Below, in pieces: positions 1-34,229 of a stretch of DNA of 47,465 nt; within the stretch, counting starts at the first letter, position 1; the number at the start of each line of letters is the position of its first letter. The notes below the pieces were generated by a model that was given only the letters and a program-made list of their open reading frames with translations, searched no databases and was not told where the DNA came from. The stretch lies in the IMG/VR virus record IMGVR_UViG_3300034196_000151; one strand, written 5' to 3'. A program made the translations under genes and the position numbers. The stretch is from a virus. Taxonomy: Duplodnaviria > Heunggongvirae > Uroviricota > Caudoviricetes.

Positions 1-80
1 ACGTAGTTGTGGTTCACTTGCAACAGTGCGAGACTTTTGCCGGAGTTCATTACTGCGTGACGGAAGTAGAGCTTAGCCAT
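1..80 (-). CDS. tdk: Thymidine kinase, N-terminal 26 codons (runs off window edge)
   Basis: Read by hand: MAKLYFRHAVMNSGKSLALLQVNHNY, closely resembling the N-terminus and P-loop of enterobacterial Tdk ([21 protein letters not shown]); SD-like AGGA upstream. Confidence 0.85.
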   Translation of the reverse strand, partial: MAKLYFRHAVMNSGKSLALLQVNHNY

Positions 81-111
81 GATGGTGTTCCTAGTTCGTT
101 TCGATGGGATA

Positions 112-140
112 ATTATACCAAAAGCCCGCCACAACGGCAA
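112..140 (-). promoter_or_regulatory. Sigma70 promoter for tdk, overlapping the upstream terminator hairpin
   Basis: TTGCCG-17 nt-TATAAT on the minus strand. Confidence 0.7.
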
Positions 141-176
141 GCTTTTATTGGTCAAAAACTCCAAATCGTCCCGAAT

Positions 177-401
177 TTATTGGGCGTAATAGACTTCGTT
201 GATTTTCGCAACATCACACGAAACGACACCTTTACCATGATGTTCAAGGTATTGGCAAGCATTCCAGAAGGTGTTATCCACATCAGTAAAATCCGTATCA
301 GGATACGCCCATACAATGCAGTCTTTATCAACATACAAGCTAGCATATTGATCGTCTTCCATCTGGATATTACGAATTTCAATCCCACAAATCTGTTTCA
401 T
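177..401 (-). CDS. Hypothetical protein (74 aa)
   Basis: Minus-strand ORF with AGGT SD-like motif, followed by a hairpin at ~120-146. Confidence 0.55.
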   Translation of the reverse strand: MKQICGIEIRNIQMEDDQYASLYVDKDCIVWAYPDTDFTDVDNTFWNACQYLEHHGKGVVSCDVAKINEVYYAQ

Positions 402-429
402 AAAATCTACCTATCTAATGTGTTTCGAT

Positions 430-564
430 TCAGTCGAACCTTACAGGAACACAAGGGCCATCCCAATTTTGAACGATTGGGGTGAATTTTGGATAAGCTG
501 CAATGTCAGCGAGGGTACACCATGTAAAATCGTAAGGAATACCAAGAGTGGTCATGATTTTCAT
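430..564 (-). CDS. Small hypothetical protein (44 aa, MKIMTTLGIPYDFTW...)
   Basis: Read by hand; fills the gap in the minus-strand gene series; below ORF track cutoff. Confidence 0.35.
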   Translation of the reverse strand: MKIMTTLGIPYDFTWCTLADIAAYPKFTPIVQNWDGPCVPVRFD

Positions 565-678
565 AATATTAAAATACTCTTTTCGAAATATGGGTCTATT
601 TTACCACCAACAGCATTTAGCTACAAGCTTTAAATAAAAAGCCCAACACGGGGTTGGGCTATTGAACACAAGACAAAG

Positions 679-1020
679 TTAGGCCGACTTCGGAACCGCA
701 AAGTATTCCAGCTTGGTGCGGTCGCCTTTTTGAGCAATAAATTTACGAATAAGTGCGTTAGGATGCGGACGCATGTAGTGTTCGACTTGTTTGGTGGATG
801 CGGCTACAACAACATCAAGATTCAAACCCAGATACATGCCAGAACCCAAGCCACGGCTAGTCACTTGTTTAATACAGAACTGAATTCCACCTGCAGTTGG
901 AAAGAACATAATGCGATGGCTGCTCATAACCCCCATAGGCTTGCCGGGTTCACCGAACTCAACGGCTTCGATTTCTTCATTTTGCAGTTGAACGAGAAGT
1001 GCTTTCAGGCTAGTGCTCAT
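679..1020 (-). CDS. Hypothetical protein (113 aa)
   Basis: Start moved to MSTSLK, downstream of SD AAGGA and a TATAAT-like promoter; terminator at ~635-660. Confidence 0.65.
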   Translation of the reverse strand: MSTSLKALLVQLQNEEIEAVEFGEPGKPMGVMSSHRIMFFPTAGGIQFCIKQVTSRGLGSGMYLGLNLDVVVAASTKQVEHYMRPHPNALIRKFIAQKGDRTKLEYFAVPKSA

Positions 1021-1093
1021 GAATAAATATCCTTGTTTGGTTGTTGAGGCTATTATAACAATAATGAAAAACGAAAACAATGTTTTTTGATTA

Positions 1094-1333
1094 TTAATTC
1101 GACTGATAGGTAAAGGATTTTTTAAATTCAGACACAGTTGAATGGGAGCCTTTACGGTAGTTAGTGGAGTAATGAACAACATCACCTACAACATCAGTCA
1201 CCGTTGCTACAATAGGCGTACAATAGCGATCTACTACATCATCAAGCATAGCCCATACTTGCCCCTTCTTAGGTGCTGGCTGTTCAGGAACTGGAGTGCT
1301 GAATATTTTTTTGAGAACATTAATAAATTTCAT
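1094..1333 (-). CDS. Hypothetical protein (79 aa)
   Basis: ORF on the dominant strand; no recognised motif. Confidence 0.6.
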   Translation of the reverse strand: MKFINVLKKIFSTPVPEQPAPKKGQVWAMLDDVVDRYCTPIVATVTDVVGDVVHYSTNYRKGSHSTVSEFKKSFTYQSN

Positions 1334-1452
1334 GTAGACTCCTGATGAATAGAAAAGCAGTAGAGATCATCTAACAGGTAAGTATTTTACCAAAAACAAA
1401 GAAAAAAGGCAATAAAAAAATGGCCGAAGCCATTTTATATAACACTGAACAA

Positions 1453-1887
1453 TTAAGCAATATCCCAGTGTTCCACATAACCTTTACGAGTTGCAAAGTC
1501 AATGATAAAAATGAAAAAGGAGCTAAAAAGTCCTACCACAAGAGACATGATGATAGGGAAGTAATTTAAAGTAATGGCCGAAACATTGGCACCAAAATCA
1601 GCCGCCGACAAAGCAACAGTAATCGGTGTAGGTTTTTTATTGTTCTGGATAAATTGAACAAATTGCTCCAGAGACACTTTTTTTACAACCTGTTTTCCAT
1701 CAACCACAATGGTTCCTTCGAAAATCTCACCACCATTATAGCCATGATAGCTTTCAACATGGGTCAAAACACCACTGTAAGAAGCTGTCTGGAAAAGGTG
1801 CATATTCTCTTTATTATCCTGATGGACAAATAAAATAGCACAAATAAAGGAAATGAAAAGAACAAAAGAAATATTCGAAGTTTTCAT
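1453..1887 (-). CDS. Membrane protein with N- and C-terminal hydrophobic segments
   Basis: Two hydrophobic stretches; SD AAGGGG; own promoter and UUCG terminator. Confidence 0.65.
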   Translation of the reverse strand: MKTSNISFVLFISFICAILFVHQDNKENMHLFQTASYSGVLTHVESYHGYNGGEIFEGTIVVDGKQVVKKVSLEQFVQFIQNNKKPTPITVALSAADFGANVSAITLNYFPIIMSLVVGLFSSFFIFIIDFATRKGYVEHWDIA

Positions 1888-1943
1888 GTTAGCCCCTTGG
1901 TTTAAGATGACCTATTATACCAAAGACAAAAACAAATAGATAT

Positions 1944-1967
1944 AAAAAAAATGGGCCGAAGCCCATT
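1944..1967 (-). terminator. Intrinsic terminator with C(UUCG)G loop
   Basis: AATGGGC-TTCG-GCCCATT followed by a T-run on the minus strand. Confidence 0.85.
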
Positions 1968-1989
1968 ATTTTATACTGACCTGACTTAA

Positions 1990-2442
1990 TCAAGCGGCCA
2001 GTTGTTGTTCTTGCAAGGCTTCTTTCAGCAGGCGGTCAGAGATGAGAGCGACTTGCAAGCCCATCAACATGGTTTCGACTTTATTGACCGACTTGCGAAG
2101 GTCGATGATTTTATTGGTCAGCACCAACTCTTCCAGCGACATCGGTTGAACCTTCGACAGTTCAAGGTTGCTTTCATGACGCAAGGTGTCGAGGTCTTTT
2201 GCCGCCGGGAATTCACGGGTGTGAACTTCACCACCAGCTTCGGTCAGCAGAATGGCTTCGGAGTTGAACACCGCCACCAAACCTTTACGGGTCAGGTTGA
2301 GCACAACAGCATTCACCTGATTAGGCTTGATGGCTTCTGGGCCTTTGCTGAGGTCTTTGATCATGATTTCAGGAGCGGAAGAACGCATGGCAACAGCGAT
2401 GTTGCGGATAACAGCACGTTCGAGAGCGGTAACTTGAGTCAT
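1990..2442 (-). CDS. Hypothetical protein, possible winged-helix N-domain plus coiled coil (150 aa)
   Basis: Start MTQVTALE after SD GGAG; helix-LTRKGLV-strand-LTEAG pattern is typical of winged-helix wings (inference). Confidence 0.55.
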   Translation of the reverse strand: MTQVTALERAVIRNIAVAMRSSAPEIMIKDLSKGPEAIKPNQVNAVVLNLTRKGLVAVFNSEAILLTEAGGEVHTREFPAAKDLDTLRHESNLELSKVQPMSLEELVLTNKIIDLRKSVNKVETMLMGLQVALISDRLLKEALQEQQLAA

Positions 2443-2551
2443 GGTGTATCTCCGAGAAGGTTGGTTGCTTCGTTTTGATGTGTCTATCATATCAAAAAGC
2501 AGATTATTCGACAAGCTTTATTTTCATCATTTTGAATAAAACCCAAATAAA

Positions 2552-2647
2552 TCAAGCAGGCCAAAACCCATCATCAGACCAGTCTTCATCATTACAACCA
2601 AAAAAAGCTTCTGCGAAAAGAAGGCACAAAATAATAGATTTAATCAT
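2552..2647 (-). CDS. Possible 31-aa peptide (MIKSIILCLLFAEAFFGCNDEDWSDDGFWPA)
   Basis: Short ORF between two cassettes; hydrophobic N-half, acidic tail; weak SD. Confidence 0.25.
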   Translation of the reverse strand: MIKSIILCLLFAEAFFGCNDEDWSDDGFWPA

Positions 2648-2683
2648 ACGGATGATACTCAGTAGGTTGGGGTGATGTGGATA

Positions 2684-2910
2684 ATAAAAAAAGGCACCCT
2701 CATGGATGCCTTTCTTCTGATAGAAGTTACTCTGCGTCTTGATGACGATTACGACGCTTGTCACGCCATTGGCGGTCTTTTTTGTTGTGCTGAGCTTTCT
2801 CGCTGTCATGTTTCTTTGCACCGCTGAAACGTTCAACTGCGTCACCGAAAGAACCTTGCATGTTGTAACTCCTAACCTTGGGTTTGTGTTGTTTCGTTTT
2901 GATGTGTCTA
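2684..2910 (-). repeat. ~225-bp repeat unit 1 (promoter, leader, 44-aa ORF, terminator)
   Basis: Near-identical to 3583-3811 and 4170-4390 by direct comparison. Confidence 0.9.
2727..2861 (-). CDS. Basic microprotein copy 1 (44 aa, MQGSFGDAVERFSGAKKHDSEKAQHNKKDRQWRDKRRNRHQDAE)
   Basis: SD AGGAG; promoter TTTACT-17-TAGAAT; terminator; frame conserved across four copies. Confidence 0.85.
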   Translation of the reverse strand: MQGSFGDAVERFSGAKKHDSEKAQHNKKDRQWRDKRRNRHQDAE

Positions 2911-3017
2911 TTCTAACAAAAATGAGTTTTTTAGTAAAGCTTTATTTTGAAAATAATAAAAAAACCAAATAAAAAAGCCCCAGAAAAATGAGGGGCTATT
3001 CAATGTTTTGAAAGTTT

Positions 3018-3215
3018 TTATCGAGGATTTTTTATAATATTAATTGCATACTCCCAATCATAATCAATGCTCTGATCTTGATCTTGCAGCAAACCCCACT
3101 CTACAAGACTTTTTGAATCAGTCATGGCATCAGCCAAAGTATCTTCATCAGAAGATGAGCGACCAACATTATCCAACCAAGATTCAAGATATTCTTTTAA
3201 GACTTTTTTATTCAT
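3018..3215 (-). CDS. Hypothetical acidic protein (65 aa)
   Basis: ORF with SD and downstream hairpin. Confidence 0.55.
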   Translation of the reverse strand: MNKKVLKEYLESWLDNVGRSSSDEDTLADAMTDSKSLVEWGLLQDQDQSIDYDWEYAINIIKNPR

Positions 3216-3259
3216 AATTAATACCCTATGTATATTAATGTAGTGCAGAAATTACTAGG

Positions 3260-3502
3260 CTAGATCAAAACTCGGCAGTCGCCGCCCTGCAAGTGAATGG
3301 AATAAATCTCATCAGAGAGTGCTTCGATAGCCTCTTCATTACCTGCCACACCACAAGCAACGACTTTTTCGAACATTTCGTGATCTGCAGGAAAATCAGT
3401 TGCGTAGACAGATACCAGTCCAATGCGAACACCGCCATGTTCCAGCATGGCAATGAAATAGTCAGCACCTTTAAAAATGAAGTTGGTAATGTTTGCGGTC
3501 AT
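3260..3502 (-). CDS. Hypothetical protein (80 aa)
   Basis: ORF with TATAAT promoter upstream. Confidence 0.6.
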   Translation of the reverse strand: MTANITNFIFKGADYFIAMLEHGGVRIGLVSVYATDFPADHEMFEKVVACGVAGNEEAIEALSDEIYSIHLQGGDCRVLI

Positions 3503-3582
3503 GTCTATGCCCTGTGAGGTTTGTTGAAGTAATTATAACAAAAACAAGTTTTTTGGTCAATAAAAAGTGTAGGTTTAATAAA

Positions 3583-3811
3583 ATAAAAAAAGGCACCCTA
3601 ACGGATGCCTTTCTTGTAGAAGATGTTATTCTGCGTCTTGATGACGATTACGACGCTTGTCACGCCATTGACGGTCTTTTTTATTGTGCTGAGCTTTCTC
3701 GCTGTCACGTTTCTTGTTGCCCGAAAAACGTTCTTGTGCGTCACCGAAAGAACCTTGCATGTTGTATCTCCTAGCCTTTGGGGTTTGTGTTGTTTCGTTT
3801 TGATGTGTCTA
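3583..3811 (-). repeat. ~225-bp repeat unit 2
   Basis: Near-identical to 2684-2910. Confidence 0.9.
3626..3760 (-). CDS. Basic microprotein copy 2 (44 aa, MQGSFGDAQERFSGNKKRDSEKAQHNKKDRQWRDKRRNRHQDAE)
   Basis: SD AGGAG; own promoter and terminator; same length and frame as copy 1. Confidence 0.85.
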   Translation of the reverse strand: MQGSFGDAQERFSGNKKRDSEKAQHNKKDRQWRDKRRNRHQDAE

Positions 3812-3866
3812 TAATACCAAAAATCATATTTCTAGACAAGCATTATTTTCTTAAACTTTAAAAATA

Positions 3867-4145
3867 TTACTCAAGGTCAAAATAGAAAACAATACGAGTT
3901 TTGCCATCAGCACATTGAAACGTGTGCTTGTATTCTGGGGTTGTGCAAGCTTTCCCACAGTGTAATCGTTTATCTGTTTGAACTTTATCAATCAACCTGC
4001 ATTGGTTGTCTTTATCTTTGACAAATGAAACCTCTTCGGGCCTTGTCAAGACAGCCATTAAGATACCACCACCGAAAACAGCAAAAACTATCAGAGAGGA
4101 TGTGGTTGCTAAACTCAATTCACTTTCAATTTTGTTATTAAACAT
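3867..4145 (-). CDS. Membrane-anchored protein with four Cys (92 aa)
   Basis: N-terminal hydrophobic helix followed by a Cys-containing soluble part. Confidence 0.6.
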   Translation of the reverse strand: MFNNKIESELSLATTSSLIVFAVFGGGILMAVLTRPEEVSFVKDKDNQCRLIDKVQTDKRLHCGKACTTPEYKHTFQCADGKTRIVFYFDLE

Positions 4146-4169
4146 AAGTAAATTTCACAATAAGGATGG

Positions 4170-4390
4170 ATAAAAAAAGGCACCCTAACGGATGCCTTTC
4201 TTCTGGTAGAAGTTTATTCTGCGTCTTGATGACGGTTGCGACGCTTATCACGCCATTGACGGTCTTTTTTATTGTGCTGAGCTTTCTCGCTGTCGTGTTT
4301 CTTAGCACCACTGAAACGTTCAACTGTGTCACCGAAAGAACCTTGCATTTTGTAACTCCTAACCTTGGGTTTGTGTTGTTTCGTTTTGAT
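4170..4390 (-). repeat. ~220-bp repeat unit 3
   Basis: Near-identical to units 1 and 2. Confidence 0.9.
4214..4348 (-). CDS. Basic microprotein copy 3 (44 aa, MQGSFGDTVERFSGAKKHDSEKAQHNKKDRQWRDKRRNRHQDAE)
   Basis: SD AGGAG; promoter TTGTTT-17-TATACT; terminator. Confidence 0.85.
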   Translation of the reverse strand: MQGSFGDTVERFSGAKKHDSEKAQHNKKDRQWRDKRRNRHQDAE

Positions 4391-4438
4391 GGGATAAGTA
4401 TACCAACATCACCAAACAAAAACAACATTTTTCTCAAT

Positions 4439-4825
4439 TTATTTTGGAGAATAGACCTTGCCATAGTCTGCCATGTGTTCGGCTGCGTCCGGGTCATCGG
4501 AATAGGCAGGCAAAGCCACACCAGCACCCTGTTCGTCCAAGACGTTAGGGTTTACATCGAAAGCACCATAAATAGTCAACTCACCAGAACGTGATTCTGA
4601 ACGGTTTAGGAGCACTTTGATATTCATTTCATTGGCGAGATCCTGCACCACTTCTTTTGCTTTTGACTTAGCCAGATTTCCATAGACTTCAAACCACGGC
4701 AAACCGTCTTCAAGCTTCAAACGGGAACCAACAATGCCATTCAAGACACCAAGATTCCATTTAGACATCACACGATTAAACGCCTGTTCCAACTCAACAA
4801 TATTTTTAGTATTAATTTCAGTCAT
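4439..4825 (-). CDS. Hypothetical protein (128 aa)
   Basis: ORF with SD GAGG and promoter. Confidence 0.65.
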   Translation of the reverse strand: MTEINTKNIVELEQAFNRVMSKWNLGVLNGIVGSRLKLEDGLPWFEVYGNLAKSKAKEVVQDLANEMNIKVLLNRSESRSGELTIYGAFDVNPNVLDEQGAGVALPAYSDDPDAAEHMADYGKVYSPK

Positions 4826-4933
4826 AATCCACCTCTTAGTTGAGCGGATTATACATTATAGACGTAATAAATACAATAGTTTATTGATAAAAAAACCCGC
4901 ACTAGGCGGGTAAGGTGGGAATTTTTTTTGATG

Positions 4934-5404
4934 TTAAGCGGAGAGCGGTTTAGCACTATATTCATCATAAGGCTGATGAACATAAGCAGCGTCCAGATGA
5001 ATTGCCAACTCTGCTACATCTTTAAACATAAACGATTGGCTGGGTTTGCCTTCGGTTGCTCGGATATAGAGTTCCCAACGGTCTTCACCCTGTCCATAAC
5101 CCCCTTCGATGATGTCAGCAGTGCCCCGCAAGATCAACTGGTGTTCATCGCCGCATGGGTCTTGGTAAGGCACCTGACGGGCATCCAGAGCGGCACGGAT
5201 GTCATTGATGGTCAGTTTTTTCACCGGATAAAGATTGGCAACAAACTTAATTTCAAAAAGATGTTTAGGAGCATCTGGATAAAGGCTTTGGGCTTTCGCA
5301 AGTGCAGAAGAAGAATCTGCGGCCCAGACCTCGCCCATATAGACATTGTGAAAACGAATCTGAAAAAGTTTGGTGTCAGTTTCAAAGTTATGTTCGTTGT
5401 TCAT
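4934..5404 (-). CDS. Hypothetical protein (156 aa)
   Basis: Start moved to MNNEHN, downstream of a TATAAT promoter. Confidence 0.6.
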   Translation of the reverse strand: MNNEHNFETDTKLFQIRFHNVYMGEVWAADSSSALAKAQSLYPDAPKHLFEIKFVANLYPVKKLTINDIRAALDARQVPYQDPCGDEHQLILRGTADIIEGGYGQGEDRWELYIRATEGKPSQSFMFKDVAELAIHLDAAYVHQPYDEYSAKPLSA

Positions 5405-5487
5405 GATGTTCGCCTTGGAAGAAGTGAGTAGGGTGATTATACCAAACCACCCATTCAAAAACAACATTTTTCGGTTGAATTACCGAA

Positions 5488-5940
5488 TTAACGGCGGTAA
5501 TCGGCCATGTTGTAGATTTTGGCGGTTGGGCGTTCTGGCGTGCAAGCTTCGCCAAAAAGAAGGCCAGCCAAAGCAGATTTGATGCCGTCGATTTGTTCTT
5601 GGGAGAAAAGTTCTTTACCTTCTTCAAGCAGGTCAGCCAACGTTTCACCATTGCCAAACAGCACCTTGTCTTCAATAGGTGCCGGAGCAGCAACGACAGG
5701 TTCTACCACATCATCAGCCCGAAGGGTAGGGCACATGCTGTATACACCACGCGGATAGAAGCATTCTTTGCCATCGTAGATGAAAATACCCTTGGTGACA
5801 GGCTTAGTTTCACCTTTCATAAGGAACGTCACACGCTTGGCAGTGCGTTTGGTAATGGTCGCTGTAACCATATACGAGGAATCACCAATCGAAGGGGTAG
5901 CGTAGGTTTTGCCAGCTTCGAGTTTGAGGATAGTTTCCAT
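5488..5940 (-). CDS. Phage/plasmid-type hypothetical protein (150 aa)
   Basis: ORF with own promoter; no recognised family. Confidence 0.65.
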   Translation of the reverse strand: METILKLEAGKTYATPSIGDSSYMVTATITKRTAKRVTFLMKGETKPVTKGIFIYDGKECFYPRGVYSMCPTLRADDVVEPVVAAPAPIEDKVLFGNGETLADLLEEGKELFSQEQIDGIKSALAGLLFGEACTPERPTAKIYNMADYRR

Positions 5941-6017
5941 GACGTTTTCCCTATGGGTTTCTGTTTTGATGGGATAATTATACTAAAATACTAAAACAAA
6001 AACAAGCTTTTTCTGGA

Positions 6018-6293
6018 TTAAACGAGGATTGTTTTAGAAGGTCGCTTGTAGGCACGCCATTTTGGGCCTTTATTGAAACGCTCACGGCTGGCCGATGCTT
6101 GGTCTGAATGGTTTCCGCATTTATCTTCCATACGAAGCATTTCAGCAGCGGCAACACCAATGTCTGTTTTGCATTGAACCTGAATTTCTTGGTTCAGCAC
6201 ACCATTGGTGAAGCAACGAACACCCCAGAGTTTCGGTTTGATACGAGTTACTTTGATTTCATGAGTAACATTGCCACCGATGATAACCTTCAT
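6018..6293 (-). CDS. Hypothetical protein (91 aa)
   Basis: ORF with SD GAGG and promoter. Confidence 0.6.
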   Translation of the reverse strand: MKVIIGGNVTHEIKVTRIKPKLWGVRCFTNGVLNQEIQVQCKTDIGVAAAEMLRMEDKCGNHSDQASASRERFNKGPKWRAYKRPSKTILV

Positions 6294-6390
6294 GAAAAAC
6301 CTCGTCTGGTAAAAGGCGACATTGTGTCGTTTGTAGGATGTAAGTATACCAAAAATCAGTTTTTAGAACAAGCACTATTTCAAAGAAAAC

Positions 6391-6410
6391 AAAAAGGGGC
6401 CGAAGCCCCT
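6391..6410 (-). terminator. Intrinsic terminator with C(UUCG)G loop
   Basis: GGGGC-TTCG-GCCCC followed by T5. Confidence 0.85.
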
Positions 6411-6433
6411 AGATGTGTTCAAAGTGGTTGATT

Positions 6434-6832
6434 TTAGTGCGGAAGGCACATTTCAACATTGAAGCGGTTGAACGCATCCACCAAGATTTCACGGGCCTTT
6501 TCAGCATCTTCTTCGGAGATAACAGAGCAGGCTTCGATGTATTTGATAGCAGAAGCATCAACGCCTTCTGGCAAATCAGTGTTAGCACCACTGGTGAAGG
6601 ACGCATTGTAGGCAACCAGCGACAGCTTGTGAGGTGCGTCGTAACCCAACAGTTCCAGACCGGGAGCTGTCCGCTCAGACGACAGTGCATAGAAGTGGGT
6701 CACACCATCATGGGAAAAGCTGAACTTGACGACAGCTTCACGGATAGCACCACTGTTACGGTCAGAAACAACGATTTTTTTGGCAGCAATGGCTTTCAAC
6801 AGAGCACGGTTAAATTTTTGAATGTGATTCAT
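6434..6832 (-). CDS. Hypothetical protein (132 aa)
   Basis: SD GAGGA; terminator downstream. Confidence 0.65.
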   Translation of the reverse strand: MNHIQKFNRALLKAIAAKKIVVSDRNSGAIREAVVKFSFSHDGVTHFYALSSERTAPGLELLGYDAPHKLSLVAYNASFTSGANTDLPEGVDASAIKYIEACSVISEEDAEKAREILVDAFNRFNVEMCLPH

Positions 6833-6870
6833 TTATTTTTCCTCGGGTGTTTGTTGTTGTGGTTATTGTA

Positions 6871-7596
6871 TCAATAGAATGCCATCTTTACAAGCGATTT
6901 TAAATTTTCGCTCCATTTTGAAAGGTCAATCAATTCCCGAATCTGTTCGAAACTGGCGTCTGGCATGGCTTCTTGTATTTTGTGTTTATAGTAACGGTTA
7001 AAAAATTCCATGTCCATCTTTCTCATGCTGGCTTGTGTCGTCAGCTTGTTGTTCGTGATGTAACATTTTAAGGGTTCTTGACCTTTATTACGAAAAAGAA
7101 TTAATGCGGTTTTCGAAACAGATTCATCAATGTGATCATATTTGAAACTGAAGGTCACACTGAAGTCAACCCGATTAAAATTCTGAAATGGGGCTGAGGT
7201 ATTGCCTTGATTGATTAATTCAAGGTGCTGATTAAGCCGGTTGATAAAAATGTCGATATTTTCAGATGCTGAATCATCAAAATATTCAGAATAAACATCA
7301 GTAATTTCAGGGCTGAATTTGAAATACAACGAGTGAGGGGTATCACCTTTGTAAGCTGTAATCATTGCTACGGTTTCGGCCTTGTCTACAACACCACCAT
7401 ACATACCCAGCGTATGCGGGCAAGAAGGCATGTTTTCAATAATACGTTGACCATTCGCATCTAAAGGGTAGCGGCAAACGCCCCAGCGATCAATGCCATA
7501 TTCAAAAGCAGCATTAGTGAACTTCTTGGAAAAGAACAAAGCCACGCCAAAACTTGGAAGTTTGATATGTTCTTCGTCAAAATCGGCTGGGTTCAT
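6871..7596 (-). CDS. Hypothetical protein (241 aa)
   Basis: Long ORF on the dominant strand; no recognised motif. Confidence 0.7.
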   Translation of the reverse strand: MNPADFDEEHIKLPSFGVALFFSKKFTNAAFEYGIDRWGVCRYPLDANGQRIIENMPSCPHTLGMYGGVVDKAETVAMITAYKGDTPHSLYFKFSPEITDVYSEYFDDSASENIDIFINRLNQHLELINQGNTSAPFQNFNRVDFSVTFSFKYDHIDESVSKTALILFRNKGQEPLKCYITNNKLTTQASMRKMDMEFFNRYYKHKIQEAMPDASFEQIRELIDLSKWSENLKSLVKMAFY

Positions 7597-7706
7597 GATG
7601 GGTCGTCCTGAAAGTAAGCAGAAACAAAAGGAAAGGCTTATTGGAATGCTCGCCCTTTGCCGCTTCGAAGACTTATTTTAACAAAAAACAGGTTATACTG
7701 CAACCT

Positions 7707-8177
7707 TTATTCATTTTGATTGCCATATTTGAGGAAATAAAGAAACTTCGCTTTATACTCAACAAATTTACTAACAGCAACCCATATGAAAAACAGAGCA
7801 CCCAACAGAAAAATCAGGATACCCAGCATTTTCCAGATAGATCCATGAACATTATTGTCAAGATTTTCTTGACTGAGATTTTTTTGCATAGGAATAGGTT
7901 TATTTCCACCGACTTCAAATTCACGATAAACCTTGTCTTGAATGGCATGACGAAATTTCTGTCCCGTCAAATCATCAACAAAGAAACCAGTGGTGTTGAA
8001 AAAGGTGTTTTGCTTTTGTTTGTAGGTGGTGCTACTGGTGTCCACAAGTGTGATATTTCGGATCGTTTTTGCTTCATAATCAACGCCAAAACTATAGAGC
8101 TTAATGCCATAGGTTACAAGAAGAACGCCGAAAACAACCAGCAAAATGTGAGTGATGTTCTTTTTGATAAAGTGCAT
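7707..8177 (-). CDS. Membrane protein, two TM segments (156 aa)
   Basis: N- and C-terminal hydrophobic helices; SD AAGG before MHFIKK. Confidence 0.65.
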   Translation of the reverse strand: MHFIKKNITHILLVVFGVLLVTYGIKLYSFGVDYEAKTIRNITLVDTSSTTYKQKQNTFFNTTGFFVDDLTGQKFRHAIQDKVYREFEVGGNKPIPMQKNLSQENLDNNVHGSIWKMLGILIFLLGALFFIWVAVSKFVEYKAKFLYFLKYGNQNE

Positions 8178-9262: not shown

Positions 9263-10291
9263 CTAGAAAACAAACTTCTTGTAATTTTCGGATTTTGCAA
9301 GGTAGTTTTCGATAATGGTATCAATCGGCAACGGCTTTTTGCGATTGTGCAGATTATCGTGGGAATGACGTTTCAACATCATGTCTTTGGCTTGCGTCAA
9401 GATCTCACGAATGTTTTCAACACTTTCGGTATAATTCGACCATTCCAGTTTCGATTTTATTTTGTTGACTTCATGAGCCACAATCAACAGATTGGATACA
9501 TTATAACCTTCAAAACGGTTAATACGGTCAATCGAGAAACCAAACGGGTTGTCTTCCTGTGTTTTAGTGGCCTTAACTAACGGCAAACCCGTCAATTGAC
9601 AGTGAGTGACGTTAAACAGGTGCTTAGAGTTCTCAAACGTGAGATCGCTTGTAAAACCCTTGCTTTTGGAACGCTCTTTGCACATTTCAATTTTGCGAAG
9701 AATGGCCCGGTCGGAATAGAACGATGCTTTACGAACAAAATCCGAAGGCTTAAAGACAGGCAGCGGTGTGCGTGGTGCAGCAGTCTCGATCAAACGTTGG
9801 CTGATATGCACAATGCGTTCAGGCGTCACCAAACTACGTTCTATGAGCACATCATGATTAACCGGGTCTGGTGTCAGGCTCTTTGGTTTAATCGTAGGCC
9901 GCATGGTGTCATGAATTAAGGTAAGCTGAGCCTTAATGTCATTGATATCAATAAAGTCTGGTGTGGCCTTCATCATTTTGTGAAGTTCAAACCAAAAGTT
10001 AACGGCTTGCTGGTGAACAATCAACACCTGATTAACCGATACGACATCGGCAGTGTAGGGATTAATCGGAATCAGGTACACATTACCCATGTCATTGAAT
10101 TTTGCACCTGTGACTTCACAGTAGAAGCTGCCATCGAGTTCAGTCGCTTTCAGGCGTGCTAGCACTTCTTTTTCAAGAAGATCAAAGGTCAATGTCGGGT
10201 AATACCGTTTCACACGTCCGATCATTGAACGCATGTTGGAATTCAATTTTTCCAAACCTTTTTTAGCCAAGTTTTGAGGAATGAGGCTCAT
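9263..10291 (-). CDS. His-Me finger (HNH-like) domain protein, T4 Srd-like C-terminal domain
   Basis: CQLTG...SIDRINRFEGYNVSNLLIVAHEVNKIK matches the C-x-x-TG / SIDRID-GY-N-N pattern of His-Me finger proteins. Confidence 0.65.
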   Translation of the reverse strand: MSLIPQNLAKKGLEKLNSNMRSMIGRVKRYYPTLTFDLLEKEVLARLKATELDGSFYCEVTGAKFNDMGNVYLIPINPYTADVVSVNQVLIVHQQAVNFWFELHKMMKATPDFIDINDIKAQLTLIHDTMRPTIKPKSLTPDPVNHDVLIERSLVTPERIVHISQRLIETAAPRTPLPVFKPSDFVRKASFYSDRAILRKIEMCKERSKSKGFTSDLTFENSKHLFNVTHCQLTGLPLVKATKTQEDNPFGFSIDRINRFEGYNVSNLLIVAHEVNKIKSKLEWSNYTESVENIREILTQAKDMMLKRHSHDNLHNRKKPLPIDTIIENYLAKSENYKKFVF

Positions 10292-19350: not shown

Positions 19351-19457
19351 CGTAAATCCCCTTTTTGATGAGGCTATTATAACACTTAATGAAATAAAGG
19401 ACAATAAAAAACCCAACACTAGGCTGGGTTTTTATGATGAAAATTGAATTACTTCAT

Positions 19458-33672: not shown

Positions 33673-33713
33673 AATTAGTAGTTAGTTCTGCATCGGTAGC
33701 TCACCTCTGGCAC
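33673..33713 (-). repeat. 41-bp repeat copy A, containing SD plus minigene ATG CAG AAC TAA
   Basis: GTGCCAGAGGTGAGC-12 variable nt-ACTAACTACTAATT. Confidence 0.85.
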
Positions 33714-33774
33714 TTCGTTTAATATGAACTAAGGGTTAGTCGGCATTCATTATACTAGATTCAATTATAGATTA

Positions 33775-33815
33775 AATTAGTAGTTAGTGCGGCATTATTG
33801 GCTCACCTCTGGCAC
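33775..33815 (-). repeat. 41-bp repeat copy B, containing SD plus minigene ATG CCG CAC TAA
   Basis: Identical 15-nt and 14-nt flanks to copy A; different 12-nt core. Confidence 0.85.
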
Positions 33816-33854
33816 ACTGATTAGTTATCAAGTGGTTAATGTTTTAATTCAATT

Positions 33855-33939
33855 TGGTGCCCGGTGCCAGACTCGAACTGGCATGACTTTCGCCGGAAGA
33901 TTTTAAGTCTTCTGTGTCTACCGATTTCACCAACCGGGC
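33855..33939 (-). tRNA. tRNA-Leu (UAA)
   Basis: GCCCGGT/ACCGGGC acceptor; anticodon loop CT-TAA-AA; long variable arm; GTTCGA; encoded CCA. Confidence 0.95.
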
Positions 33940-33945
33940 ATAATT

Positions 33946-34022
33946 TGGTCCGTGCGGCAGGACTTGAACCTGCGACCATCCGCTTAGAAGGCGGATGCTC
34001 TATCCAACTGAGCTACGCACGG
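33946..34022 (-). tRNA. tRNA-Arg (UCU)
   Basis: CCGTGCG/CGCACGG acceptor; AGCTCAGTTGGATAGAGC D arm; loop CT-TCT-AA; GGTTCAA; CCA. Confidence 0.95.
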
Positions 34023-34031
34023 GTGTTTGTT

Positions 34032-34163
34032 TTATTCAGCGTCTTGATGACGTTGACGACGATTATCACGCATTTGACGGCTGGCTTTGTTATCGCCACG
34101 TTTGGAGTTGTCTTTCTGCTTGCCTGCAAACTTTTCCATCATGTCGCGGTGAGAACCTTGCAT
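34032..34163 (-). CDS. Basic microprotein copy 4, diverged (43 aa, MQGSHRDMMEKFAGKQKDNSKRGDNKASRQMRDNRRQRHQDAE)
   Basis: Conserved MQGS start, RQxRDxRRxRHQDAE end and same leader; SD AAGGA; ends 9 nt before tRNA-Arg. Confidence 0.85.
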   Translation of the reverse strand: MQGSHRDMMEKFAGKQKDNSKRGDNKASRQMRDNRRQRHQDAE

Positions 34164-34200
34164 TTTGTATTTCCTTGTGTTGTTTCGTTTCGATGGGTTC

Positions 34201-34229
34201 ATTATATGGAAAAGAGGGTTGGGTGTAAA
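34201..34229 (-). promoter_or_regulatory. Sigma70 promoter of the microprotein-tRNA-ncRNA operon
   Basis: TTTACA-17-TATAAT. Confidence 0.8.

Follow-up and report, generated by a model that had tools for sequence, protein, structure and literature searches.

The window analyzed here is the whole stretch of DNA of IMG/VR virus record IMGVR_UViG_3300034196_000151, with a length of 47,465 nucleotides (nt). Between 2.7 and 4.4 kb it contains three copies of an open reading frame (ORF) for a microprotein of 44 amino acids (aa), which were named A, B and C and are all encoded on the minus strand. The copies lie in 207-nt repeat units at 2683-2889, 3582-3788 and 4170-4376 (minus strand), the latter two being 86% and 82% identical to the first, and a repeat-family analysis revealed that an 84-nt promoter/leader extension is likewise repeated. 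An earlier interpretation made without database searches (here called the sequence-only reading) had described three expression cassettes composed of a promoter, a CA-rich leader, the motif AGGAG, a 44-codon ORF and a terminator. Alignment and consensus-site scans recovered all of these parts, in this order, on the minus strand. The promoters are of the sigma-70 type, with a 17-nt spacer and an extended -10 region. The leader of the three cassettes reads CATCAAAACGAAACAACACAAACCC, the Shine-Dalgarno motif AGGAG is situated 7 nt upstream of the ATG in each case, and the terminator, about 16 nt past the ORF, has the form AAGAAAGGCATCC-N4-GGGTGCC followed by a T-run. As had also been stated, the differences between the copies all preserve length and frame, and the C-terminal 26 residues are the same in A, B and C although synonymous differences are present. 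We regard it as nearly certain that the gene is real and that the anatomy of the cassettes is as follows:

2910..2938, minus strand: early sigma-70-type promoter of copy A, TTTACT, 17 nt, TG-n-TAGAAT (consensus scan, alignment)
2862..2904, minus strand: leader of copy A, CATCAAAACGAAACAACACAA, next ACCCAAGGTT, AGGAG (2869-2873) and a 7-nt spacer (alignment)
2727..2861, minus strand: coding sequence of copy A, 44 aa plus stop (substitution analysis, family search)
2685..2715, minus strand: intrinsic terminator of copy A, stem GGCATCC/GGGTGCC, loop ATGA, T-run (folding, hairpin search)
3811..3839, minus strand: promoter of copy B, TTGTCT, 17 nt, TG-n-TATTAT (consensus scan)
3761..3805, minus strand: leader of copy B, 2 nt longer through an insertion that A and C lack (alignment)
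3626..3760, minus strand: coding sequence of copy B, 44 aa plus stop (ORF reading, substitution analysis)
3586..3615, minus strand: terminator of copy B, loop GTTA (consensus scan, hairpin search)
4397..4425, minus strand: promoter of copy C, TTGTTT, 17 nt, TG-n-TATACT (sequence reading, alignment)
4349..4391, minus strand: leader of copy C (alignment)
4214..4348, minus strand: coding sequence of copy C, 44 aa plus stop (ORF reading, tblastn)
4172..4202, minus strand: terminator of copy C, loop GTTA (hairpin search)

The public gene call of 74 aa for copy C runs through the leader and represents an over-long start call. The copy number of three given by the sequence-only reading holds for 2.7-4.4 kb, but a tblastn search of the window without low-complexity masking uncovered a fourth copy that had been overlooked. 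This diverged copy (34032-34163, minus strand; 43 aa plus stop, 57% identical) has a promoter and leader of the same type as A-C and is devoid of a terminator. It is followed by two transfer RNA (tRNA) genes, and the 9-nt gap without a terminator led us to read copy 4 and the tRNAs as co-transcribed:

~34201-34229, minus strand: promoter of copy 4, TTTACA-17-TATAAT; the leader begins with CATCGAAACGAAACAACACAA at 34195
33855..34022, minus strand: tRNA-Arg(UCU) and tRNA-Leu(UAA), starting 9 nt past the stop codon of copy 4, with tRNA-Leu 6 nt after tRNA-Arg

The microprotein is encoded by a conserved gene

The sequence-only reading had taken the ORF for a genuine, selected gene in self-contained cassettes, and had named a homology search (tblastn or profile search) and the ratio of nonsynonymous to synonymous substitution rates (dN/dS) among the copies as suitable checks. 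The dN/dS values among A, B and C were 0.02-0.25, indicating purifying selection, and the median for the family was 0.23 (15 unique 44-codon relatives), with differences concentrated at codon position 3. An RNA structure, which that reading had considered as another possible source of the conservation, does not explain it, as codon position 3 varies most. Judged by this substitution pattern, the ORF is a genuine protein gene under purifying selection.

The homology searches returned relatives, none of which belongs to a characterized family. A word-indexed protein search found 9 relatives, and an exhaustive profile search of 1.84 billion representative proteins found 31 cluster representatives at E<=1e-3. 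Nearly all relatives have lengths of 41-46 aa, and those of 56-74 aa hold the domain C-terminally, which fits start calls placed too far upstream; this description of lengths leaves aside two long proteins that showed several partial matches. The family follows the pattern MQGS[FYH]..[DE]..E[KR]F...K.[KR]D...K.D[RK]..R.[KR]R[RQ]NRH. It contains 16% Arg, 15% Lys and 10% Asp, while L, I, V, P, C and Y each account for less than 1%. Sequence searches of Pfam, PHROGs, NCBIfam and the PDB, with single sequences and with profiles, yielded nothing meaningful. The known small ribosomal or ribosome-associated proteins L34, L36, S21, Sra, RMF and Thx were considered as candidates and were rejected, there being no sequence match in Pfam, NCBIfam or the PDB. 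The microprotein family of 41-46 aa is thus uncatalogued.

AlphaFold2, supplied with a 49-sequence alignment, predicted helices at residues 5-11 and 20-37, with a mean predicted local distance difference test score of 79 and block means above 90 for residues 21-40. The prediction has the features of an arginine-rich motif, namely a short Arg-rich helix without a hydrophobic core. A search of the ESM Atlas gave no usable match, Foldseek found no match in the PDB, and a VIA-align fold search of 48,161 chains retrieved generic long helices only (best Z 3.6). Going by the model, the microprotein is probably a charged helix that folds on a partner, and not a globular protein.

Untranslated elements and codon choice

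Part of the leader is generic and part of it is specific, which modifies the view of the sequence-only reading that the leader is shared by the three cassettes. The GAAACAACACAA part is indeed specific to the microprotein gene, but at least 13 genes of the window have in common the promoter and the 9 bases with which the transcript opens, CATCAAAAC. These genes carry one early-promoter module that consists of an AAAGCTT-type -35 region, TG-n-TATAAT, 5 nt, and the 9-mer opening the transcript; examples are found at 106, 2480, 5971, 11713, 19370, 22293, 23391, 26089 and 34195 (minus strand). This 9-mer, transcribed and conserved, might act as a signal in the initial transcribed sequence, or else as an operator through which early expression is shut off.

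Conservation of the untranslated regions (UTRs) was quantified over orthologous cassettes, namely those of the three window copies and of five loci on metagenome contigs (L008, L009, L011, L023 and L024; L numbers denote the loci fetched for comparison), which gave 25 between-genome pairs. A 21-mer of the leader was 100% identical across all pairs and the terminator stem 98%, compared with 50% for the terminator loop and 57% for the promoter region. The identities at codon positions 1, 2 and 3 were 76, 85 and 54%, respectively. By this measure, the leader 21-mer and the terminator stem are more tightly constrained than the protein, a result that the sequence-only reading had not anticipated. 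In the window and the loci searched, both were seen only beside the microprotein gene, while more distant copies of the family have other terminators, or a tRNA in place of the terminator. A scan of IMG/VR with the 21-mer gave 0 matches, and a scan with a 15-mer gave mostly chance matches.

A structured leader was ruled out, since the leaders are less structured than shuffled sequences: the leader and start region folds worse than 183-200 of 200 shuffles (z +1.5 for copy A). Translational enhancers of a CA-rich, unstructured kind are known, and by analogy the 21-nt leader reads as a predicted member of this kind. The whole transcript of copy A folds better than shuffles (z -3.3), and the terminator supplies most of this signal. 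A pairing between the Shine-Dalgarno motif and the 3' UTR, suggested by the fold of copy A and an apparent compensatory change in B, was also rejected, as it did no better than shuffles once the whole family was considered.

AGA and AGG account for 0 of the 175 Arg codons counted in 25 unique genes of the family, compared with 11% in 52 background ORFs of the window. The microprotein gene is therefore independent of the element's own tRNA-Arg(UCU). As far as can be told from codon counts, the avoidance of AGA/AGG is the choice expected of a highly expressed gene.

Probable stacking of modules at the three-copy locus

Three loci on metagenome contigs (L009, L011 and L024) are syntenic with positions 1-8000 of the window, and each contains a single copy at the site at which the window has three. 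After the upstream neighbor, the gene orders are:

Window: copy C, 92-aa gene, copy B, 80-aa gene, 65-aa gene, copy A, 150-aa gene
L009: copy, 92-aa gene, 150-aa gene
L011: copy, 80-aa gene, remnant of the 65-aa gene, unrelated 134-aa ORF, 150-aa gene
L024: copy, 150-aa gene

Read from these gene orders, the region at 2.7-4.4 kb is a series of three promoter-bounded modules, i.e. a copy with the 92-aa gene, a copy with the 80-aa and 65-aa genes, and a copy alone. Each of the three is matched by one relative with a single copy, and the homology breaks fall in the promoter/leader segment that is common to the copies and the 150-aa gene (repeat family D2). Stacked modules are the expected outcome of homologous exchange at shared promoter/leader sequences, and we consider it likely that the modules were stacked by recombination. 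The proposal of the sequence-only reading that the repeats serve as recombination substrates has thereby gained comparative support, as the three relatives have a single copy with different cargo and the window has all three in series.

The cargo genes, described in that reading as unrelated, indeed intervene between the cassettes, those of 65 and 80 aa separating A from B and that of 92 aa separating B from C. No Pfam or PHROG family match was obtained for any of them. The features between and next to the cassettes are:

3867..4145, minus strand: cargo ORF of 92 aa with a hydrophobic N-terminal segment; 65%-identical homolog at the same place after the single copy of L009
3532-3560, minus strand: the 80-aa ORF's own promoter, TTGACC-17-TATAAT (consensus scan)
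3260..3502, minus strand: cargo ORF of 80 aa; 81%-identical homolog after the single copy of L011
3018..3215, minus strand: cargo ORF of 65 aa; partial homolog after the single copy of L011
2978-2993, minus strand: terminator-like hairpin following the 65-aa ORF (scan)
2456..2539, minus strand: promoter/leader homologous to those of the cassettes, driving the 150-aa gene; third member of repeat family D2 and a likely recombination joint
1990-2442, minus strand: 150-aa orphan gene, next after copy A, with a leader related to that of the microprotein

The 92-aa ORF has neither its own promoter nor a clear Shine-Dalgarno motif, and in both the window and L009 (L009:6207-6470) it starts about 25-30 nt past the microprotein terminator. 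Because it lacks a promoter, its expression seems to depend on read-through of that terminator.

The 150-aa family is itself present in multiple copies (members also occur in L002, L009 with two copies, L010, L011, L019, L021 and L024), and in most loci a member is found within a few kb of a microprotein copy. The 150-aa protein could be a functional partner of the microprotein, or merely another shuffled module. Past the terminator of copy A, about 145 nt are non-coding (2540-2685, minus strand) and include a second terminator-like hairpin, GCCTTCTTTTCGCAGAAGC, with a T-run; this hairpin recurs at 5544-5583 (repeat family D5).

Linkage to tRNA genes

In the window and the fetched loci, 11 of 29 copies (about 8 of 25 after deduplication) are followed by a tRNA gene on the same strand 7-32 nt downstream. 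The linked gene mostly encodes tRNA-Arg(UCU), sometimes tRNA-Leu(UAA) or an odd tRNA-like molecule, and at least five junctions and peptide subtypes are involved. A junction of the copy 4 type is also present in L006, L007 and L025. The odd tRNA-like genes were predicted by ARAGORN straight after two family copies (L006:5359-5435 and L010:6148-6218) and have an abnormal anticodon loop ("tRNA-???"). The operon of copy 4 in the window (33673-34229, minus strand) comprises the promoter, the 43-aa gene, tRNA-Arg(UCU), tRNA-Leu(UAA), a strong Shine-Dalgarno motif and a three-codon minigene, ATG CCG CAC TAA. This context of a tRNA operon and a minigene offers circumstantial support for a putative role in translation.

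Distribution and nature of the element

Neither a DNA nor a protein match was found in 50,697 cultured-phage records and a plasmid collection. A pattern-based scan of 185,579 GTDB species genomes, which can miss copies, revealed no cellular genome with the family and gave only one spurious 17-residue match, in a metagenome-assembled genome of Clostridia, that is not a family ORF. Real copies were located in two kinds of source, IMG/VR records with lengths of 64-290 kb and metagenome contigs measuring 0.06-1.86 Mb. The window has 4 copies, a 290-kb IMG/VR record has 6, and the 1.86-Mb contig has at least 5 over about 290 kb. On the collections searched, the family is known only from uncultured phage-like contigs, among them very large elements. 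The largest contigs and their loci are:

1.86-Mb contig Ga0308158_10000001: L008-L010, L017, L021
1.54-Mb contig: L025
678-kb contig: L014, L019, L023, L024
498-kb contig: L011, L018

Contigs of up to 1.86 Mb far exceed any known phage. The related 290-kb record is labeled a provirus by IMG/VR; the 1.54-Mb contig shares the peptide and tRNA loci of this record. The large contigs may be giant elements, proviruses in small genomes, or assembly chimeras.

The window is made up of small orphan ORFs along with three tRNA genes, and its family matches include an HNH endonuclease, a protease and, weakly, T4_baseplate; most of its ORFs match no family. A 342-aa protein (9263-10291, minus strand) matches with its C-terminal part the PHROGs entries HNH endonuclease, endonuclease VII, "decoy of host sigma70" and "Srd anti-sigma factor". 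Gp23 and Terminase_6N gave no match in the related IMG/VR records. Therefore, the element is called phage-like here, and not a proven phage.

Proposed function and alternatives

The overall explanation that we favor, at a little under an even chance, is that the loci are burst-expression cassettes for a microprotein that would act stoichiometrically on a polyanionic host target. A strong host-type early promoter with an extended -10 region, an unstructured CA-rich leader, a canonical Shine-Dalgarno motif, an ORF lacking AGA/AGG codons, and a tight terminator or a tRNA in its stead would together form a self-contained burst-expression unit, from which the microprotein would be made abundantly and early in infection. 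It would then act in stoichiometric amounts, its Arg-rich helix (R-x-K-R-R-N-R-H) contacting a polyanionic target that is abundant in the host. This proposal is derived from the burst-expression design, the many intact copies, the charged Arg-rich helix and the context of tRNA operons. The target would most likely be the ribosome, ribosomal RNA (rRNA) or tRNA, because the gene repeatedly heads the tRNA operons of the element and sits among other RNAs directed at translation. Binding to RNA or the ribosome, which the sequence-only reading had also proposed, is plausible but put forward tentatively, as a claim that may well fail. A more specific version is more doubtful and must be called rather unlikely: the microprotein would be a stoichiometric ribosome- or tRNA-binding factor, encoded in many copies by giant phage-like elements and released in a burst at the start of infection. 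Along with the tRNAs of the element, the tRNA-like RNA and the RNAs with a Shine-Dalgarno motif plus minigene from the same operons, it would form a dedicated module that reprograms host translation and is controlled partly by the invariant leader and terminator.

Several points weigh against the favored explanation. The evidence on translation, abundance and binding of the microprotein is indirect. The microprotein has a net charge of no more than about +4, and acidic residues are found at its ends and, as Asp and Glu, inside the helix. Within the databases searched, no homolog of known function was found and the fold searches were uninformative. The strong promoter/leader cassette could simply be a convenient driver of tRNA genes, and duplicated gene-plus-tRNA units inflate the count of tRNA linkages. 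The window copies are 82-86% identical to one another at the DNA level versus 70-77% to the copies of relatives, values that would fit a duplication in this lineage as well as gene conversion, or the differential loss of copies from an ancestor that had several; gene conversion among the copies is possible. Dosage selection, as put forward by the sequence-only reading, is plausible, in that none of the copies is broken, purifying selection acts on all of them and 5-6 copies are seen in relatives too; however, the tripling at 2.7-4.4 kb can equally be a by-product of promoter-mediated module stacking. Lastly, the phage nature of the element itself is unproven, in view of the related IMG/VR records that match neither Gp23 nor Terminase_6N.

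Among the alternatives, a host-takeover factor that binds DNA or RNA polymerase, e.g. for nucleoid condensation or modulation of transcription, is improbable, yet fares best. The gene is an early gene among small orphan ORFs typical of takeover genes, the helix is basic, and many copies would suit an abundant target. However, no known DNA-binding fold or family was matched, the net charge is modest, and the recurrent placement in front of tRNA genes would be left unexplained.

Hardly less improbable is a sequence-specific RNA-binding regulator that would act on the hairpin of its own terminator or on its leader, by antitermination or autoregulation, and would thereby set the expression of the cargo. 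The model is the N protein of phage lambda, which acts on boxB in antitermination. The predicted Arg-rich helix fits such a role, as does the terminator stem, which including a U-G pair is kept at 98% while the loop and the synonymous sites drift, and which occurs only after the microprotein gene. Furthermore, the promoterless 92-aa cargo gene that starts about 25 nt past the terminator of copy C, and likewise in L009, would need read-through. Yet the loop, the usual contact of arginine-rich peptides, is not conserved, distant copies have unrelated terminators or a tRNA instead, and the apparent pairing of the Shine-Dalgarno motif with the 3' UTR in the window copies is not family-wide. Moreover, a regulator would not need several highly expressed copies.

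A counter-defense factor directed against a host nuclease that targets tRNAs or ribosomes, co-expressed with replacement tRNAs, appears slightly less probable again. Phage tRNAs are known to offset tRNA-cleaving defenses, and copy 4 was read as co-transcribed with tRNA-Arg(UCU) and tRNA-Leu(UAA). However, most copies are not linked to a tRNA, and no defense or counter-defense family was matched; PADLOC, which lists defense proteins rather than inhibitors, was not searched.

It is quite unlikely that the product is irrelevant and that the short ORF, as a translated leader or an expression platform, serves only to stabilize or drive the transcripts of tRNAs and cargo further downstream. The gene does head tRNA operons and its leader is very conserved, but the amino acids are under strong purifying selection, the N- and C-terminal motifs are fixed over about 30 diverged clusters, and most copies end in their own terminator with nothing dependent downstream. 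That the locus does not encode a protein at all, but a structured RNA or chance ORFs, has next to no probability left: the better-than-shuffled fold of the transcript stems mostly from the terminator, and the idea is already contradicted by variation that tracks codon positions, a dN/dS far below 1, and the preservation of length and frame in every recovered copy.

If the microprotein does bind ribosomes or tRNA, it would represent a new and very small viral factor for the takeover of translation, encoded in unusually many copies by elements that rank among the largest phage-like ones known. Whatever its function, the locus offers a clear natural case of promoter-mediated module stacking outside the cultured T4-type phages, with the gain, loss and multiplication of orphan genes. 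It also shows UTR elements that are held more tightly than the protein that they express, and the cassette is a compact natural high-expression unit.

Comparison with known systems

The accessory ORFs in the tRNA regions of T4 and T5 resemble copy 4 in that they are small ORFs co-transcribed with phage tRNA-Arg(UCU) and tRNA-Leu(UAA). In contrast to them, the microprotein family is conserved over many elements, is present in multiple copies, and mostly stands alone, away from tRNAs.

The RNA-binding helices with an arginine-rich motif of the lambda and P22 N proteins and of HIV-1 Rev are likewise short and Arg-rich without a hydrophobic core, and like them the microprotein would fold on a nucleic-acid partner. 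The N proteins share two further properties with it, i.e. a phage early gene and a conserved RNA hairpin nearby. However, the microprotein has no sequence relationship with these proteins and no known RNA partner, the loop of its hairpin is variable, and it differs from them by its fixed length and its strictly conserved N-terminal MQGS and C-terminal motifs.

SmpB (through its C-terminal tail), ArfA, ArfB, BrfA and ArfT fill the ribosome's empty mRNA channel with basic tails (reviewed in PMC8012679). These tails, which are positively charged and become helical once on the ribosome, are similar to the microprotein in size and composition. When residues 14-42 were aligned pairwise with the full-length E. 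coli SmpB tail, only 14 of 1000 shuffles scored better. With profiles, the hhalign probability for E. coli SmpB was 0.1%, and the score of 8.4 against 32 SmpB tails equaled the mean of 100 column-shuffled controls; homology with the SmpB tail (PF01668) was therefore rejected and the pairwise hint was treated as chance. Homology with ArfA (PF03889) was also rejected, since there was no Pfam match at E<=10, the hhalign probability was 0.3%, and the pairwise score was no better than 789 of 1000 shuffles. Unlike genes of ArfA-type factors, the microprotein gene has a normal stop codon and yields no non-stop message: all recovered copies have an in-frame stop 7-32 nt before the terminator or tRNA. 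Homology aside, a mode of action similar to that of tails plugging the mRNA channel is possible.

The arrangement of the locus resembles the promoter-early stem-loop (PeSL) cassettes of T4-type phages (Arbiol et al. 2010, PMC2839356; Comeau et al. 2014, PMC4122927), in which recombination between repeated early-promoter/stem-loop motifs inserts, deletes and replaces orphan genes (PMC2839356). PeSL cassettes belong to T4-type phages, in which excised mini-circles can be detected, whereas the window gave only a weak T4_baseplate match as a sign of a T4-type phage and its modules are known from sequence comparison. Both systems have a plastic early region whose small orphan genes are bordered by sigma-70-like early promoters, present as repeats, and by stem-loop terminators. 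In the window, scans and repeat families revealed this combination of promoter and stem-loop terminator at intergenic sites of an orphan-rich plastic region, including composites of a terminator plus a promoter, e.g. at ~19370-19436 and ~26089. In both, relatives vary in the presence or absence of the flanked genes, with the joints in repeated regulatory sequence, and such differences with joints in the cassette were found between the window and L009, L011 and L024. The two systems differ in that the most conserved parts here are the transcribed leader and the terminator stem, and not the promoter hexamer region, and in that one of the shuffled modules is a conserved protein gene that is present many times.

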